The notes beneath the pieces are model-generated. The model saw only the letters and a program-made list of their open reading frames with translations. It was not told the DNA's origin and made no database searches. Positions 40,811-46,763 of a stretch of 64,000 bases of DNA are shown here, piece after piece (the stretch's first letter is position 1; each line of letters begins with the position of its first letter). Both the position numbers and the translations under genes were made by a program. The stretch is from the IMG/VR virus record IMGVR_UViG_3300020236_000037, positions 2,051 through 66,050 of that record; one strand, given 5' to 3'. Source of the DNA: a virus. Lineage: Duplodnaviria > Caudoviricetes.

Positions 40811-41245
40811 ATGAACATCCTCATTATGACAGTAGGACTTCCTCAGAGTGGGAAAAGCACTTGGGCGAGAAGTCAGATATTCCCGATAGTATGTCCCGAT
40901 TCGATCAGACTAGGACTGCACGGGCATCAGTTTGTCAGTCAGGCAGAGCCTTTTGTGTGGGCAATCGCAAAGGTGATGGTCCGCTCTCTTTTTCTATCTG
41001 GTCATGGTACCGTGATCCTTGACGCAACTAATGTAACGAAGAAAAGACGCGATGATTGGGTGTCAGAATCGTGGACCAGGACCTTCAAGGAGTTCAGGAC
41101 GTCGAAAGAAATCTGCGTGGAAAGAGCGTTGAAAACGTTCGCAGGACATGACAACCTGGATGGGGTTCTCGCTGCAATTGATCGCATGAGCAAAAATCTG
41201 GAATGGGTTGATAATGAAGAGTGTGACTGTAAGACCCAGGTATGA
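40811..41245 (+). CDS. AAA_33 / polynucleotide-kinase-like P-loop protein
   Basis: TVGLPQSGKSTW...VILDATNVTKKRR. Confidence 0.8.
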   Translation: MNILIMTVGLPQSGKSTWARSQIFPIVCPDSIRLGLHGHQFVSQAEPFVWAIAKVMVRSLFLSGHGTVILDATNVTKKRRDDWVSESWTRTFKEFRTSKEICVERALKTFAGHDNLDGVLAAIDRMSKNLEWVDNEECDCKTQV

Positions 41246-41281
41246 ACCGTAGCGCATCTGCCAGCATCTGACACAGCTCTC

Positions 41282-41425
41282 GAAGTTTCGTAGCTCCCAA
41301 AGCGTGAGGTGAGCAATGTACGGGTTTTGAAGTTTGAGAGCTCCTAAAGTGTAGGGTGACCTTTCTGTACGGGCTGGGAAGTTTTGTGGCTCCTAAAGTG
41401 GGAGAGTACCCTACATACACGTTCT
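41282..41425 (+). repeat. three degenerate direct repeats with about 47-49 bp period
   Basis: gaagttt..(a/g)gctcc(c/t)aaag(c/t)g at 41282, 41329 and 41378. Confidence 0.7.
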
Positions 41426-41870
41426 AGCCGGTTTGGGGGCCTATGGGGGGTCGGTTTTGGGGACAGTAATACTACTGTGCGCCTACGCGACATCGACGTA
41501 ACCCTATTGGAATTGTATGCTTGCGTCGATACTGCTCCTAATCGGCACGGACACCACCATATACCCTGGTTTCTATCGTTGGTTGGGGGGGGGGCTTCTG
41601 TTCTGGCAGAGAAAATGTGGGGAATTGGGGTGATTCCGTTCTGTTCCCCTTACGCTATCACCCCACCGAGCAGCGGCGCTATCCGTACTCCTCTCTTCTC
41701 TCTTCTCTTATGACGACACAAGGCACCTACGGTGCGATCACGACGCGTCATCCGGGTTTCTGTTACCGTACTATGGCGTTCCTGCTCATCCACCCTACGC
41801 ATGGTAGCGACATTGTCGGTGTCGTGCCGCTGCGTAGGGTGATCGGGTGGAGTCCAGACAATATCGGCTC

Positions 41871-41899
41871 TTGACAACGGGACGACTACACTGTACTAT
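41871..41899 (+). promoter_or_regulatory. strong sigma70-like (early) promoter
   Basis: TTGACA-N17-TACTAT. Confidence 0.7.
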
Positions 41900-42001
41900 T
41901 GGGGTGTTAGGTGACCTTGTTGACACCATACCAACTGACGGGAGGGGACAACTGATTGGAGGACGGAGCGTTTACCACACAACCACTAAACGGAGTTAAT
42001 C

Positions 42002-42592
42002 ATGAACATGACGGATCTTAGAACGCGATGGCAATCAGCCGATGTACACGATGACCTAGTGGACCATGCTGAACGAGTAGCCTACTGCCTGGCACTCGCT
42101 TGCGCTGGAGAGCCAGTACCATCGCTGGCCTGCAGTGAGCGCAGGCAGAATGCTCGCGATATCGCGGATGGCGCGCCGGGTGAGGCATATATCCGCTGCG
42201 CAGCTGCTGTTGATGCGCTCACGGGAGAAGTGGCGCCCTATTACATTGCCAGCGCCAGCCTATGGGCGCGGCAACAATCTACCGTTTGGGGCCGAAGCAG
42301 GGAGCGCGATGCGATCGATTGGTCGGTAATCCCCACCCCCCCAGATCGGCCGTGCTGGGATTACGATCCAGTTGCAGGGTTGCCGCCAGATCTACGTCCG
42401 GTCGCGAGAGGCATCGCGCGCGGCGACACACAAGCCGAGCTGGCGCGCGAGCTAGGTTGCGCGTCGCGCACGATCCAACGGCATATCTCGCGACTCCGCG
42501 GCATGCTCCCGAGCCCCGATACCCTCCTAGGCGGCGCCTATTATGGTCTGCTTGAGTATCTGCGCTCGACCAGCAGGATCGATTGCACCTAG
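42002..42592 (+). CDS. sigma-factor-like / HTH transcriptional regulator
   Basis: C-terminal LPPDLRPVARGIARGDTQAELARELGCASRTIQRHISRL resembles sigma region 4. Confidence 0.65.
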   Translation: MNMTDLRTRWQSADVHDDLVDHAERVAYCLALACAGEPVPSLACSERRQNARDIADGAPGEAYIRCAAAVDALTGEVAPYYIASASLWARQQSTVWGRSRERDAIDWSVIPTPPDRPCWDYDPVAGLPPDLRPVARGIARGDTQAELARELGCASRTIQRHISRLRGMLPSPDTLLGGAYYGLLEYLRSTSRIDCT

Positions 42593-42737
42593 CACCCGAT
42601 CGCCATTTACAGCCCCTCATGGCGTCGTGCCGCGAGGGGCTATTTTTATGCGCTCACATGTCGTGCCAGTGTGTAGGGAGTGCAGAGCGGACCCGTTGGC
42701 GGACCGCACAATATGTACTAGTAGGGAGATCGATGAT

Positions 42738-43115
42738 ATGGCTACCGTAGCCGAAGCAAGCGTACAATTACCCGCCAATATCCAAGCGCAGCTTGACGAG
42801 CTGGCGCAGTACCGCGCCGCCGAGGAGAAGCGCAAGGCCACTGCAGAGCTGGAGCGCCGGAGAGCCGAGGCAACCGAAGGTGTTGCGCTGCCGTCTGGCG
42901 GGAAAATCAAAGTTTCAGACGGTGGAAAGATCGCTATTCACCCGCCAGCAGACGGGACGCGCAAGACGTACCCATCATGGTCGATCAGACCGGAAGACCT
43001 AGAGACGCTCGCCGCTGAAGACTGGCAAGCAGTACTCGATTTTGCGGCATCGCATGTGAAATTCACCATGACCAAAGCAGCCTATATAGCGCTGCGAGAA
43101 AACGGCAAAAAGTAG
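42738..43115 (+). CDS. hypothetical early protein
   Basis: GGGAG RBS, ATG at 42738; followed by a terminator. Confidence 0.6.
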   Translation: MATVAEASVQLPANIQAQLDELAQYRAAEEKRKATAELERRRAEATEGVALPSGGKIKVSDGGKIAIHPPADGTRKTYPSWSIRPEDLETLAAEDWQAVLDFAASHVKFTMTKAAYIALRENGKK

Positions 43116-43120
43116 CTTCC

Positions 43121-43154
43121 AACCCTGTTCCCGTCTTGGGGGGCAGGGTTTTCT
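43121..43154 (+). terminator. intrinsic terminator
   Basis: aaccctgttccc-gtctt-gggggcagggtt followed by ttct. Confidence 0.75.
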
Positions 43155-43221
43155 ACGCGCTGACCTTACCGACCTGACAGGGTCTATTGCGCTCCGATGG
43201 ACCGGCTGGAAAACCAGGGGG

Positions 43222-43400
43222 AATCTGGCCGCATCTTAGCTTTCCCAGGCTCAATCTGGCCGCACCTTGCTGGATAGTGAGTGATTTGGCCGCATCAACG
43301 AAGGGACAATCGCCAATGTAACACCGTACAATGCACGACATTATTGTCGCTAGTAGCCAGTAAAGTTAGGAGGTACAATAGGTTACGCTCCGGCCGCATC
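43222..43400 (+). repeat. four copies of (t/c)GGCCGCA(T/C)C
   Basis: Aligned starts at 43222, 43253, 43283 and 43387. Confidence 0.65.
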
Positions 43401-43516
43401 GCCTAGGGTGAGATATATCTACACTCACCCCCTCCGTCGGGTGGTGTCGTCCGTCGGCGTAGGGTGAGCGAGGACCGATCGGGTTCGCACAACTACCTAG
43501 AAAAGGGAGACGAGAC

Positions 43517-43777
43517 ATGAAGATTATGTTCATTGATGGATCTGGAAATGGACTACTGAAGGAAGCAACCCTACCGTCGGGGACCACCCTCGGCGAGCTA
43601 ATTACCCTGGAGAAGGGACGCTCAAGTGTCGGCGACGGACACATGATCCGTATTCGCCGCGGCATGGATACTCTCGGAGGACAAGGAGTTGATGCACTGA
43701 GTGAAAGTGAAGTTCTCCAGGATGGAGACAAGGTAGCCGTGACAGTTCTTAAACACCAAGGAGGAGTCATTGCGTAG
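43517..43777 (+). CDS. ubiquitin-like (beta-grasp, ThiS/MoaD-like) protein
   Basis: 86 aa; ...EVLQDGDKVAVTVLKHQGG-VIA; di-Gly followed by a 3-aa extension. Confidence 0.8.
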   Translation: MKIMFIDGSGNGLLKEATLPSGTTLGELITLEKGRSSVGDGHMIRIRRGMDTLGGQGVDALSESEVLQDGDKVAVTVLKHQGGVIA

Positions 43778-43890
43778 GCTCCCTGCTAGCTGCCACCCAC
43801 AGTGACAATGTCCGTGACCTTTTGGTTCTAGAGACTGTGTCTAAGGGGTGGTAGCCTGCTGGCAATCTACTAACGAGAAAGGGAAAGACC

Positions 43891-44982
43891 ATGGGTAGAA
43901 GAAAGGACGTGCTAAAGGCATTCCGCATAGCAAGTAAGTTTCACATGCCTGATGTGAACAAACCGCTCGCTGATGCAAGTAAAGCAATCGACCTCTTGAT
44001 GAGTAGCTACAGAGGGAAGGTTACGGTCGCAAGGTTGAGAATGCCATTGGCCAGACGGAGAAGGCCACCCGGAGTGTGCAGGTCTTTTCCGGGAAGAATA
44101 AAGTCTCACGCTGAAGTCATAGAAAACACCACCCGAAACAACACCAGTAAGATAGAGATCCTTAAAGTGAGGATCAACGATGCCAGTCGAGAGATTGAAG
44201 GCATACTCGACAGACTCAAACATGCAAAAGGCGCTCTGGATCTCAATGGCCTGGCAGCCGACATTTTAGCGATTCAGAGCGAGTATAAAGTCAATGCAGG
44301 GACAGACGGTATTTACGTTATCTTCCCAGAGATAACGATCGTAAGTGAAGAGCGCTCGGTTTGTATTGGCAGCGTCACGCTGCTGATAAAGTACGCGATA
44401 TTTTCTGAGGGGAAGCAGCGGTTAATTCGTGTACTGGGAAACGACGAAACAGACTGCCGGCCCGAGAATTACATACACCCTCATGTATTCGCTAACGGGA
44501 TAATATGCTTCGGTGAAGGTGACGTCAGGTCTGCAATTAAGAAAAACAATCTCCTTGGCATTGTAGACGCAGTAAAGAACCTACTCGAATCGTGCAATGA
44601 AGAGGACTGTGTAGAGAGCTTCAATTCCTGGTTCAGTCCAGTGTGCAAAGACTGCGGAAGCGCAGCGAACAATATGTGCGATGCTTGCGGTAAGCCTTGC
44701 TGCTGTGTAAATACGTGCAATCACTGCATGTGCCAGTCTTGCATTGATTGCAGTAAGGGGTTTTCGTTCGATCTAGATCTTTGCTGTGATTGTCACAGTT
44801 TATGCGATACGTGTAGAGAAGACTTCTCAAACAGAGACCTTGAAGATGGTGAGTGTTCCGACTGTATCGAAGAAAGGGAAAATGATGAACGTGAAGAGCA
44901 GGAGCGTATTGAAGAAGAACGAGAAGAACAGGAGCGTATCGAAAAAGAGGAGCGAGAAAGCGAATCGGGCACTGCGGATTAA
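43891..44982 (+). CDS. prokaryotic E2-like conjugating enzyme with C-terminal Cys-rich zinc region and acidic tail
   Basis: YIHPHVFANGIICFGEG (HPH..C motif); numerous CxxC pairs. Confidence 0.75.
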   Translation: MGRRKDVLKAFRIASKFHMPDVNKPLADASKAIDLLMSSYRGKVTVARLRMPLARRRRPPGVCRSFPGRIKSHAEVIENTTRNNTSKIEILKVRINDASREIEGILDRLKHAKGALDLNGLAADILAIQSEYKVNAGTDGIYVIFPEITIVSEERSVCIGSVTLLIKYAIFSEGKQRLIRVLGNDETDCRPENYIHPHVFANGIICFGEGDVRSAIKKNNLLGIVDAVKNLLESCNEEDCVESFNSWFSPVCKDCGSAANNMCDACGKPCCCVNTCNHCMCQSCIDCSKGFSFDLDLCCDCHSLCDTCREDFSNRDLEDGECSDCIEERENDEREEQERIEEEREEQERIEKEERESESGTAD

Positions 44983-45688
44983 GGCATCGGCCTACGCAAA
45001 GCTGTTGTGGTTCCGAGACAATAAGGATGTAGAAATAGGAGGGTTTGGAATATCATCCAAGGAGGACCCTCTGCTTGTTGTTGACTTCATCCTTGCGCCT
45101 CAGACATGCGGTGTGTGCTCGACCCGGTTTGATCCAGACGGCCTTTCTGACATGCACTTCAAGATGTCAGAGCTAGGGTATGACCCTTCGGAGTGGTATC
45201 GAATCTGGATTCACACACACCCTGAAATGCCGGCAGAACCATCGTGCACCGATGAGTGGAACCTAGCCGATGTGTATGGTGATCACAACTGGGCAGTAAT
45301 GGCGATTGTCAGCAAGACGGGTGATCATTATGCTCGTCTTGTCCACAATGAAGGACCACCTTCAGCCGTTCGGATTGACTTCGGAATTGAGACAGTCGAT
45401 TGTTCACCCCCTGTTACTGCCGTCGACGTTAAATCTCTCATCGAAGAGTACGACGAAAACGTCAAGGTAATGGAAAGCTGGATTAACGAACCGCCTGAAT
45501 ATATCGGAGAGCAAAAAGGCTACGTCGGCGGAAACGGCGAGTACATGGAAGACCGTAAGATCCTCGATCTTCATTACAATGAAGTAATCCAATGGTCGAA
45601 GGACAACTACTATCTGCGAGAAGAAGAGGACACCCCTCACGTCGATAGTGAAGAGTACCTCGATCTATTCCTTGAATGGTCCGAGTGA
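44885..45688 (+). CDS. JAB/MPN+ metalloprotease (deubiquitinase-like); start uncertain
   Basis: YAKLLWFRD...EIGGFG...WIHTHPEMPAEPSCTD (E, HxH, S, D residues). Confidence 0.85.
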   Translation: MNVKSRSVLKKNEKNRSVSKKRSEKANRALRIKASAYAKLLWFRDNKDVEIGGFGISSKEDPLLVVDFILAPQTCGVCSTRFDPDGLSDMHFKMSELGYDPSEWYRIWIHTHPEMPAEPSCTDEWNLADVYGDHNWAVMAIVSKTGDHYARLVHNEGPPSAVRIDFGIETVDCSPPVTAVDVKSLIEEYDENVKVMESWINEPPEYIGEQKGYVGGNGEYMEDRKILDLHYNEVIQWSKDNYYLREEEDTPHVDSEEYLDLFLEWSE

Positions 45689-45706
45689 TAACCACGTCCC
45701 TTTCGG

Positions 45707-45744
45707 CGCCAGTGGCCCCTGCGTTGGGGGCTGCTGGCGTTTTT
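45707..45744 (+). terminator. terminator-like hairpin between the JAB and E1 genes
   Basis: cgccagtggccc / gggctgctggcg stem followed by ttttt. Confidence 0.6.
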
Positions 45745-45759
45745 ACCAGGAGATCAAAG

Positions 45760-46425
45760 ATGGACCTATACAGAAGGCAAAGAGGTATCTGTCCTACCAG
45801 AGAGTTTCAGGAGCAGACATTCATTGTTATCGGGGTTGGCGCAGTCGGACATGAAGTTTCTATGCAACTAGCTGCGATGGGTGCGACGAAAGTGCATCTT
45901 GTAGATTTTGATCGGGTTGAAGATCATAACTGCCTGAGCCAGGGGTATCTGACGTCCGACGTAGAAAAAACAAAGGTCGACGCAACTGCACTGTTAATGC
46001 AAAGCGTAACTCCAAGAGGGATGTTAATTGAAGAACACGACTGCAAGGTGCAGGCGGCGGAAAATCTGCCAAAGTCTGCCGTATGGTTCTCCTGTCCAGA
46101 TTCAATAGGAGCAAGAAAGGCAACCTACTTCCGATACCAGAAAGAACAGGGTGCCGCGCTGTTCGATGCCAGGGTCCTAGGTGAGACAATCAGGATCTGC
46201 ACAACACATAGGAGTGCCGACCCCGAGCAGTACAAAGGGACCCTATTTGCCGATGAAGAGGCTGTCCGGGGTAACTGTCATTCACAAATGATCATGTTCG
46301 GAGCGCGTATTGGAGCCAGCCTATTGGTAAGGGAAATGACAGCATGGCTCCGGGGGATCGAGATTGTTCCAGATATGACGTTTAACCTTATGTCCAGAGA
46401 TCTGTACGTCCCCGCAACGGTGTAA
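45760..46425 (+). CDS. ThiF/E1-like activating enzyme
   Basis: YRRQ Arg finger, IGVGAVG, DFDRVEDHN, candidate catalytic Cys in GNCH; AGGAG RBS. Confidence 0.9.
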   Translation: MDLYRRQRGICPTREFQEQTFIVIGVGAVGHEVSMQLAAMGATKVHLVDFDRVEDHNCLSQGYLTSDVEKTKVDATALLMQSVTPRGMLIEEHDCKVQAAENLPKSAVWFSCPDSIGARKATYFRYQKEQGAALFDARVLGETIRICTTHRSADPEQYKGTLFADEEAVRGNCHSQMIMFGARIGASLLVREMTAWLRGIEIVPDMTFNLMSRDLYVPATV

Positions 46426-46438
46426 GACGATGGGTGGT

Positions 46439-46517
46439 TGGTCAGTAGCTCAAACGGAAGAGCGCCGTCGGAATGTACATCCGGCGTAGGTTGCTGGTTC
46501 AAGTCCAGCCTGACCAG
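46439..46517 (+). tRNA. tRNA-like element with an elongated, non-canonical anticodon arm
   Basis: 7-bp acceptor stem TGGTCAG/CTGACCA; D arm GCTC/GAGC with GG; T arm GCTGG-TTCAAGT-CCAGC; 29 nt between D and T stems instead of about 23; no encoded CCA. Confidence 0.65.
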
Positions 46518-46763
46518 TTTGATAGTCGATAGAAAGGGGCCTATCCTGCAATCGGCACACCTTCAGTGCATTGCAGGGCAACACGCGATAGTTGCCTTGA
46601 GCAGGTAAGGTACGGACGTCCGGTTGATACTAGAACTGGTTGGCCATGGCCGCTTTTAATTTCAACAATACACCACTTAGCTTGTAGCCTAGTGGTGGCT
46701 GCCGGCCTGGGTTAATTCTGCCGATGACGCCTAGGCCGGCTCCTTCTCTAAATGGAGTTAAGC

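Follow-up and report, generated by a model that had tools for sequence, protein, structure and literature searches.

The 64,000-nucleotide (nt) stretch of DNA analysed here (the window) comprises bases 2051-66050 of the virus record IMG/VR IMGVR_UViG_3300020236_000037. At positions 43517-46425 it carries four consecutive plus-strand genes, which are predicted to encode a ubiquitin-like protein (Ubl), an E2 carrier enzyme, a JAMM/JAB metallopeptidase and an E1 activating enzyme. The record is 66,050 bp long with a CheckV completeness of 100%, and PHROG matches in the window include a terminase large subunit, a portal protein, a virion protein and a DNA helicase. Since terminase, portal and helicase are matched and the record is rated complete, we take the DNA to be of phage origin. 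A reading of the sequence alone had described four genes with intact catalytic motifs, arranged like the bacterial Bil operons yet lying in a phage genome. Both points held up: all of the named motifs were found and are invariant among relatives, and the order Ubl-E2-JAB-E1 was confirmed. The genes, and the parts of the E2, are as follows:

43517-43777, plus strand: Ubl precursor, 86 amino acids (aa), predicted ThiS/MoaD/SAMP-like beta-grasp protein with the C-terminus ...KHQGGVIA
43891-44982, plus strand: predicted E2 carrier enzyme, 363 aa, consisting of a helical arm, a UBC-fold core, a CxxC array and a C-terminal helix
E2 residues 1-112: N-terminal arm, long helices
E2 residues ~113-250: UBC-fold core with H196-P197-H198 and the putative catalytic Cys206
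E2 residues ~252-325: zinc-finger array with eight CxxC pairs
E2 residues 323-359: acidic C-terminal helix
44882-45688, plus strand: JAMM/JAB metallopeptidase, 268 aa from ATG 44882 (longest open reading frame (ORF) 44786-45688, 300 aa)
45760-46425, plus strand: minimal E1 (ThiF/MoeB-type adenylyltransferase), 221 aa (longest ORF 45676-46425, 249 aa)

The four gene products

The Ubl start codon is preceded by a Shine-Dalgarno-like AAGGGAG. Pfam ThiS matches the 86-aa protein at an E-value of 0.13 only. A profile derived from the family alignment (A3, 37 sequences) found SAMP2 as its best match (E 0.003), in addition to PF1061, MoaD, ThiS and Urm1. The AF2 model (pLDDT 77) has the strand order beta-beta-alpha-beta...beta, and Foldseek matched it to Caldiarchaeum (C.) subterraneum ubiquitin, MoaD, ubiquitin and DIX at E about 1e-3. 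Taken together, the model indicates that the protein adopts a beta-grasp fold of the Ubl type. Gly82 is the sole invariant residue in the alignment. In the window protein it is followed by the four-residue tail G-V-I-A; most relatives end with ...K-I-E-G-A plus zero to three residues, all of them carry at least one residue after the glycine, and none terminates at it. Because no relative ends at the invariant glycine, trimming by a peptidase should be needed prior to activation, in agreement with the sequence-only reading. The gene located upstream of E2 in related loci encodes a homologue of the window Ubl.

The E2 family is large, yet the window protein and 60 relatives remain without a covering model in Pfam, PHROG, PADLOC or NCBIfam, the prokaryotic-E2 models of Pfam and PADLOC included. 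A word-indexed search of 5.8 billion proteins returned solely the E2 itself, so that an exhaustive HMMER search was needed to retrieve relatives; the latter yielded 180 cluster representatives (50% identity clusters) of ~350 aa each at E<=1e-3. In the ESM Atlas, the protein resides near an unnamed cluster of 2,546 members, mostly from Planctomycetota, and near viral clusters, and a search of BFVD returned unnamed viral proteins only. The window E2 is 18-25% identical to its relatives. Invariant in an alignment of 61 sequences are H196, P197, H198, C206, G208 and W247 as well as the cysteines of the array. The active site thus reads HPH, seven residues, Cys, which is the canonical E2 spacing. 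When a profile of the core only (A5) was compared to the PDB, just four sequences matched at E<=10, three of which are E2s (E 0.12-2) that have HPN or HPH opposite the HPH of the family and their catalytic Cys opposite its Cys. In two of these PDB matches, the HMMER alignment places HPH on HPN, the Cys on the catalytic Cys, and L..YN..SP on L..PNP.SP. The AF2 model (pLDDT 83) points in the same direction: VIA-align superimposed residues 114-260 on Ube2W, UBE2S, E2-25K, UbcH8 and other E2s with Z 7.6-6.4 and root-mean-square deviations of 3.2-4.8 over 108-129 residues, and all of the matches listed to the core in a Foldseek-independent search were E2s. A VIA search with the whole model was swamped by non-specific helical matches to residues 1-132. 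We assign the protein as a putative E2 because fold, motif and operon context, taken together, favour it.

The segments flanking the core had been noticed in the sequence-only reading as a coiled coil and a long array of CxxC pairs. Both an N-terminal helical arm and a C-terminal array are indeed present, the former as the long helices of residues 1-112. The window E2 has eight CxxC pairs; the mode in the family is 10, and long forms have up to 21. Weak matches of an array profile include the MID1 B-box (8.5e-4), the RING-like domain of CesA (cellulose synthase), FYVE, TFIIH p44 and the TRIM21 RING, and a few family members match the Pfam models Siva, B-box or FYVE. That the array might serve as a built-in E3-like substrate adaptor, as also proposed earlier, is a fair inference from these sequence features: the array exists and its likeness to such domains is detectable, whereas the adaptor function itself keeps the rank of a suggestion.

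The peptidase gene required a corrected start. Homology begins around residue 45-60 of the longest ORF, which places the start at ATG 44882 or 44885, or at TTG 44909 at the latest, in each case within the 3' end of the E2 gene. The Pfam model Prok-JAB matched at an E-value of 5.5e-4, which is below the cut-off, and PADLOC JAB matched at 1.2e-4. Counting Met 44882 as residue 1, E51, H111, H113, S121 and D124 are invariant in the family alignment (A4, 34 sequences), and the HxH...S..D motif occurs in 106 of 108 ORFs of the family. Comparison of the A4 profile with the PDB returned the Rpn11 homologue of C. subterraneum as best match (8.4e-8), and proteasomal Rpn11 at 1.6e-5. Judged by these profile matches, the closest kin of the peptidase appear to be Rpn11 homologues.

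Since the only start codons ahead of the conserved block fall within the E2 gene, the two genes have to overlap. The overlap at 44882-44982 measures 101 nt (at least 74 nt), with the peptidase in the +1 frame relative to E2, and it encodes the acidic 3' tail of E2 and, out of frame, the basic 5' end of the peptidase. A forced overlap recurs in 55 of 71 related loci, with a length of 30-140 nt in most relatives. This arrangement suggests translational coupling of the two genes.

For E1, homologues and the public gene call agree on a start at ATG 45760, that is Met29 of the longest ORF, and AGGAG is located 8 nt ahead of this codon. Pfam ThiF matches above cut-off (8.1e-15, 55 bits), and the protein comprises a single adenylation domain; its homologues measure 208-241 aa. 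Among 23 sequences, the GxGxxG motif (G25, G27, G30), R6 (the Arg finger), D49, K72 and D114 are conserved without exception, and C173 is nearly invariant. The profile A1 matched ThiF, UBA7, UBA6, UBA1, UBA5 and MoeB about equally (~1e-15), with a weaker match to BubCD (6e-12); the 60 matches listed include neither BilD nor Cap2 by name. NCBIfam ThiF models scored 41-48 bits, the cut-offs being 152-275. By its sequence, the protein is thus best described as a generic minimal E1 that falls outside of the named equivalogs.

The cassette family and its carriers

Related loci were collected with the E1 alignment and comprise 35 IMG/VR loci as well as the best 80 of at least 399 genome matches, the latter nearly all from Planctomycetota. 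Synteny was counted in those loci for which enough sequence had been fetched to include the genes concerned. The JAB gene adjoins E1 in 59 of 61 genome loci and in 31 of 32 viral loci. E2 lies upstream in 50/52 genome loci and 29/31 viral loci (79/83 overall), and all four genes occur in the same order on 26/31 viral contigs and in 47/50 genome loci (73/81 overall). This four-gene synteny is far beyond chance. Moreover, the catalytic residues are invariant in all four protein families despite identities of 20-40% among relatives.

The surroundings of the cassette differ from carrier to carrier. When the flanks of the 35 viral loci were compared over +-6 kb, none of their ORFs matched a window ORF outside of the cassette. 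The isolate Planctomicrobium sp. SH527 has six copies in its complete genome (NZ_CP195790.1); four of them are 89-95% identical in nucleotide sequence over the ~4-kb cassette, with flanks that otherwise differ, and for two of the four the identity extends over 7.5 kb. One SH527 copy is bordered on one side by a serine recombinase, a coupling protein of the TraG type and a piece of a DDE transposase and, on the other side, by a tyrosine integrase abutting lptF/G; an integrase family recurs downstream in 10 genome loci. Because the flanks are unrelated, we regard the ~4-kb cassette as a module able to move from one phage or integrative element to another. That the window holds one copy of a large mobile family had escaped the sequence-only reading. 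Five carrier virus records were checked: three have direct terminal repeats, are 165-180 kb long and are rated complete. A phrog_2 terminase search of the five records returned none, their viral status resting on the terminal repeats and the CheckV estimates.

In a midpoint-rooted FastTree of E1, viral sequences occupy deep branches and the Planctomycetota copies form a shallow crown. As the root is arbitrary and the genome set consists of the best matches to a mostly planctomycete alignment, this topology is only a hint that the diversity of the cassette may lie in viruses. The window E1, together with a metagenomic protein of 64% identity, is sister to the sequence of one viral contig. The window copy of the cassette is the most divergent one seen, and it resides in a smaller phage than the 165-180 kb carriers. 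Within a clade of related 160-180 kb phages the cassette is kept throughout. Near it, the phages of this clade carry genes of the isochorismatase and radical SAM families, each kept across six to eight contigs (e.g. L012:1499-2062 and L010:7538-8461). Longer forms of the proteins were observed in four viral loci (L003, L004, L007 and L028), with a Ubl of 221-245 aa, an E2 of 700-800 aa bearing ~20 CxxC pairs and a JAB protein of 450-1333 aa.

About one third of the loci, eight of them viral, combine the cassette with a classic AAA ATPase of ~500 aa (PF00004, 2.6e-27; phrog_8638, 3e-83). Within NCBIfam it comes closest to CDC48 (6.6e-20) and PAN (4e-15), with scores far short of the cut-offs throughout. 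The ATPase is accompanied by a 320-aa protein of no recognised family (e.g. L038:742-2295 and L038:2324-3262), and the pair is located upstream of the cassette in genome loci and downstream in several large phages. Homologues of this pair and of the other conserved accessory genes seen in relatives (integrase, radical SAM and others) are absent from the window. It is suggestive that a CDC48/PAN-like ATPase should occur together with Ubl, E1, E2 and an Rpn11-like JAMM peptidase, but this has no direct bearing on the window copy. No paper on this cassette family was found in a literature search, although there may be a brief earlier mention in print.

Relation to known systems and predicted role

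BilABCD is a bacterial ISG15-like system for anti-phage ubiquitination that exists in types I and II (10.1101/2023.09.26.559546, PMC11601596). It has been shown that JAB pre-processes the Ubl after a conserved Gly, upon which E1 and E2 thioesters are formed (10.1101/2023.09.26.559546). The present cassette shares with it the gene order, a Ubl with a conserved Gly and a short tail for removal by JAB (BilA of E. aridi ends with Gly97-Ala98; 10.1101/2023.09.26.559546, PMC11601596; most members of the present family end with ...EGA), the carriage on mobile elements and the absence of a separate E3, target choice being attributed to E2. However, the E1 has one ThiF domain in 221 aa and lacks the architecture that defines Bil, the E2 displays a classical HPH-Cys motif flanked by the helical arm and the CxxC array, and the present copy is in a phage genome rather than in a host defence island. 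No Bil-named chain appeared among the PDB matches of the E2, JAB and E1 profiles, in a PDB copy for which the presence of Bil chains is unconfirmed. By these sequence comparisons, the cassette appears Bil-like in gene order and predicted mechanism, but not a member of Bil.

The operon of C. subterraneum encodes ubiquitin, an E1-like and an E2-like protein, a small RING finger protein and Rpn11, which matures pro-ubiquitin (PMC5654768). Similarities to the window cassette include the Rpn11-type JAMM peptidase, a pro-Ubl that is matured by it (predicted here), a UBC E2 with canonical motif and a cysteine-rich zinc module that would work with E2; in addition, the Ubl model has C. subterraneum ubiquitin among its best structural matches. 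In contrast to that operon, there is no separate RING gene, the zinc module being fused to E2 and not a clear RING, and the Ubl is ThiS/SAMP-like with one invariant Gly versus the Gly-Gly of true ubiquitin. A C-terminal UBL domain is mentioned for the archaeal E1-like proteins (PMC5654768, legend of Fig. 1), and the 221-aa E1 has no room for one. E2 motif, JAMM peptidase and pro-Ubl nevertheless seem nearer to the archaeal eukaryote-like operon than to Bil.

The archaeal SAMP/UbaA/HvJAMM1 system likewise combines a small ThiF-type E1, a JAMM peptidase and a Ubl of the kind matched best here, SAMP2. Sampylation is known to work without E2, whereas an E2 is nearly obligatory in the present family. 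Bub (6E/DUF6527) uses a Tyr on E1 and a Ser on E2, forming oxyester intermediates, and features fused proteins and the DUF6527 protease (PMC11601596). It resembles the cassette in uniting E1, E2, Ubl and peptidase on mobile elements, and BubCD is a detectable relative of the E1; unlike in Bub, the cysteines are conserved (Cys206 without exception, Cys173 almost so), each protein has its own gene, and the proteins scanned include no DUF6527 match. PRTRC was rejected, as the PRTRC ThiF model TIGR03736 reached 21.3 bits versus a cut-off of 144.75, and the nearby ParB-like gene and other neighbours matched no NCBIfam model at E<=0.01. CBASS Cap2/Cap3, which has an E1-E2 fusion protein beside a CD-NTase, was rejected as well: the genes are separate here, and the PADLOC E1-E2 models match the adenylation domain only. 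No CD-NTase match is present among the annotated conserved neighbour families. Of the Bil, Bub and PRTRC families, which the sequence-only reading had proposed for comparison, the cassette belongs to none, on account of E1 architecture, catalytic residues and the TIGR03736 score, respectively.

We consider it probable that the four genes form a self-contained pathway for conjugating a ubiquitin-like tag and travel together as an accessory module. What the sequences show is the folds, catalytic residues that do not vary, a tail that has to be trimmed and strict synteny of the four genes; each chemical step, and the target, we infer. The JAMM peptidase would cut the short tail of the 86-aa precursor after Gly82 (or Gly83). 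The freed glycine would then be adenylated by the 221-aa E1, probably acting as a ThiF-like homodimer, which probably then carries the Ubl as a thioester on Cys173. From there, the Ubl would be transferred to Cys206 of the UBC-type E2, which may conjugate it to lysines of target proteins, with the helical arm and the zinc-finger array as a substrate-selecting, E3-like part. The JAMM peptidase may also undo the tagging. For the same steps there is experimental precedent, both from Bil (10.1101/2023.09.26.559546) and from the cascade of C. subterraneum (PMC5654768). Several observations weigh against this interpretation. The fold matches of the E2 are middling (Z about 7) and its profile link to E2s is weak (E 0.12), while the likeness of the array to RING or B-box domains is weak and inconsistent. 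The match of the A1 profile to ThiF/MoeB spans residues 16-127 only, and Cys173 is a candidate catalytic residue by position and conservation only. Finally, single-protein IMG/VR scans with E1, E2 and portal returned no close relatives of the window phage, which bears on whether the cassette is core or accessory in its own lineage.

An entirely different chemistry would apply if Ubl and E1 were sulfur carriers of the ThiS/ThiF or MoaD/MoeB kind, matured by the JAMM peptidase as in CysO/Mec+; in place of protein conjugates, they would provide a thiocarboxylate for a cofactor or for the thiolation of nucleic acids. The best named matches of the E1 are ThiF models, the protein is as small as ThiF, and the Ubl profile matches MoaD, ThiS and SAMP2. 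However, these ThiF models stay far short of their cut-offs, the E1 has no rhodanese domain, an E2 with invariant Cys is present in almost every locus with room for it, and the annotated conserved neighbour families contain no sulfurtransferase, desulfurase or thiamine/Moco match. We therefore hold this alternative, which had been raised in the sequence-only reading, to be very improbable. It is likewise very improbable that the cassette represents an inactive relic in the window phage. The divergence of this copy, its low E2 identity to relatives and its CxxC count below the family mode would be in keeping with decay, but the four ORFs are open, all family-invariant residues are kept and ribosome-binding sites are in place.

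Concerning its role, a conflict is what we would expect with some confidence, directed with roughly equal likelihood either against the host (takeover, counter-defence) or against rival elements (exclusion, as for Bil). The way in which the cassette is carried, as a module on diverse elements, is in keeping with a conflict system. Its retention by the large-phage clade, on the other hand, fits a function in the life cycle. Given the same chemistry, it is quite possible, although we hold it tentatively, that the cassette provides defence or superinfection exclusion for its carrier by tagging structural proteins of competing phages and spoiling their assembly, as Bil does. The bacterial relatives characterised so far (Bil, CBASS Cap2/3) are all anti-phage systems, and Bub is suspected to be one (PMC11601596); in addition, integrative elements and phages carry the cassette as a module, and one isolate has multiple copies of it. 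Yet its retention throughout the clade of 160-180 kb phages in the E1 tree would sooner suggest a part in the life cycle, and no known defence regulator (CapW, CapH/CapP) was seen among the conserved neighbours. A bolder reading, which we regard as rather unlikely, is that phages and integrative elements of Planctomycetota turn a ubiquitin-style pathway of their own to offensive use: in the course of infection, proteins of the host or of rivals would be tagged so as to be extracted or inactivated. Its parts would be the canonical-type E2 with E3-like zinc module, the minimal E1, the Rpn11-like protease and, in about one third of cases, the AAA unfoldase. It is improbable that the cassette modifies proteins of the phage or element itself, such as one of the virion or of replication, and serves to switch maturation or timing instead of being a weapon. 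Stable inheritance within one large-phage lineage would suit such a switch, and a Ubl fold has a precedent in lambdoid tail assembly (TAPI; PMC1779556), but the same cassette occurs on non-phage integrative elements with unrelated flanks, so that a target of a single virion type is unlikely. The remaining probability falls to some other role.

The bacterial Ubl conjugation systems named above defend against phages or, for Bub, are suspected to; the present machinery is found in phage genomes and mobile elements and has a different make-up: its E2 joins a classical eukaryote-type motif to zinc fingers, its E1 is of the smallest kind, its protease is Rpn11-like and, in relatives, a CDC48/PAN-like ATPase is often added. 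If active, it would offer a tractable case of a bacterial virus using ubiquitin-style tagging, and would also inform on the way in which E2, Rpn11, AAA unfoldases and E3-like zinc modules were brought together before eukaryotes. Should the offensive reading be true, it would amount to a ubiquitin-segregase system of viruses in bacteria, with a use opposite to the defensive one known for Bil.

Surroundings of the cassette in the window

Nearly all long ORFs of the window are on the plus strand. The cassette is positioned after the structural block, which extends to ~38 kb, and before the helicase (52.5 kb); upstream of it there are a ParB-like gene, a small kinase-like gene and a helix-turn-helix (HTH)/sigma-like gene. 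A search for a tyrosine integrase in the 66-kb record did not find one, and neither DNA nor protein comparison matched the window to GenBank phages. Scans of the sequence for promoters and terminators remained at chance level. Upstream of the HTH/sigma-like gene there is an ORF-poor stretch at 41250-42000, which is empty of Rfam matches even at E<=1; an Rfam search of 41200-43520 returned no match. Immediately downstream of the cassette lies one further feature, which begins 13 nt past the E1 stop codon and is both the sole tRNA and the sole Rfam match in the window:

46438-46518, plus strand: tRNA-Tyr (anticodon GTA)

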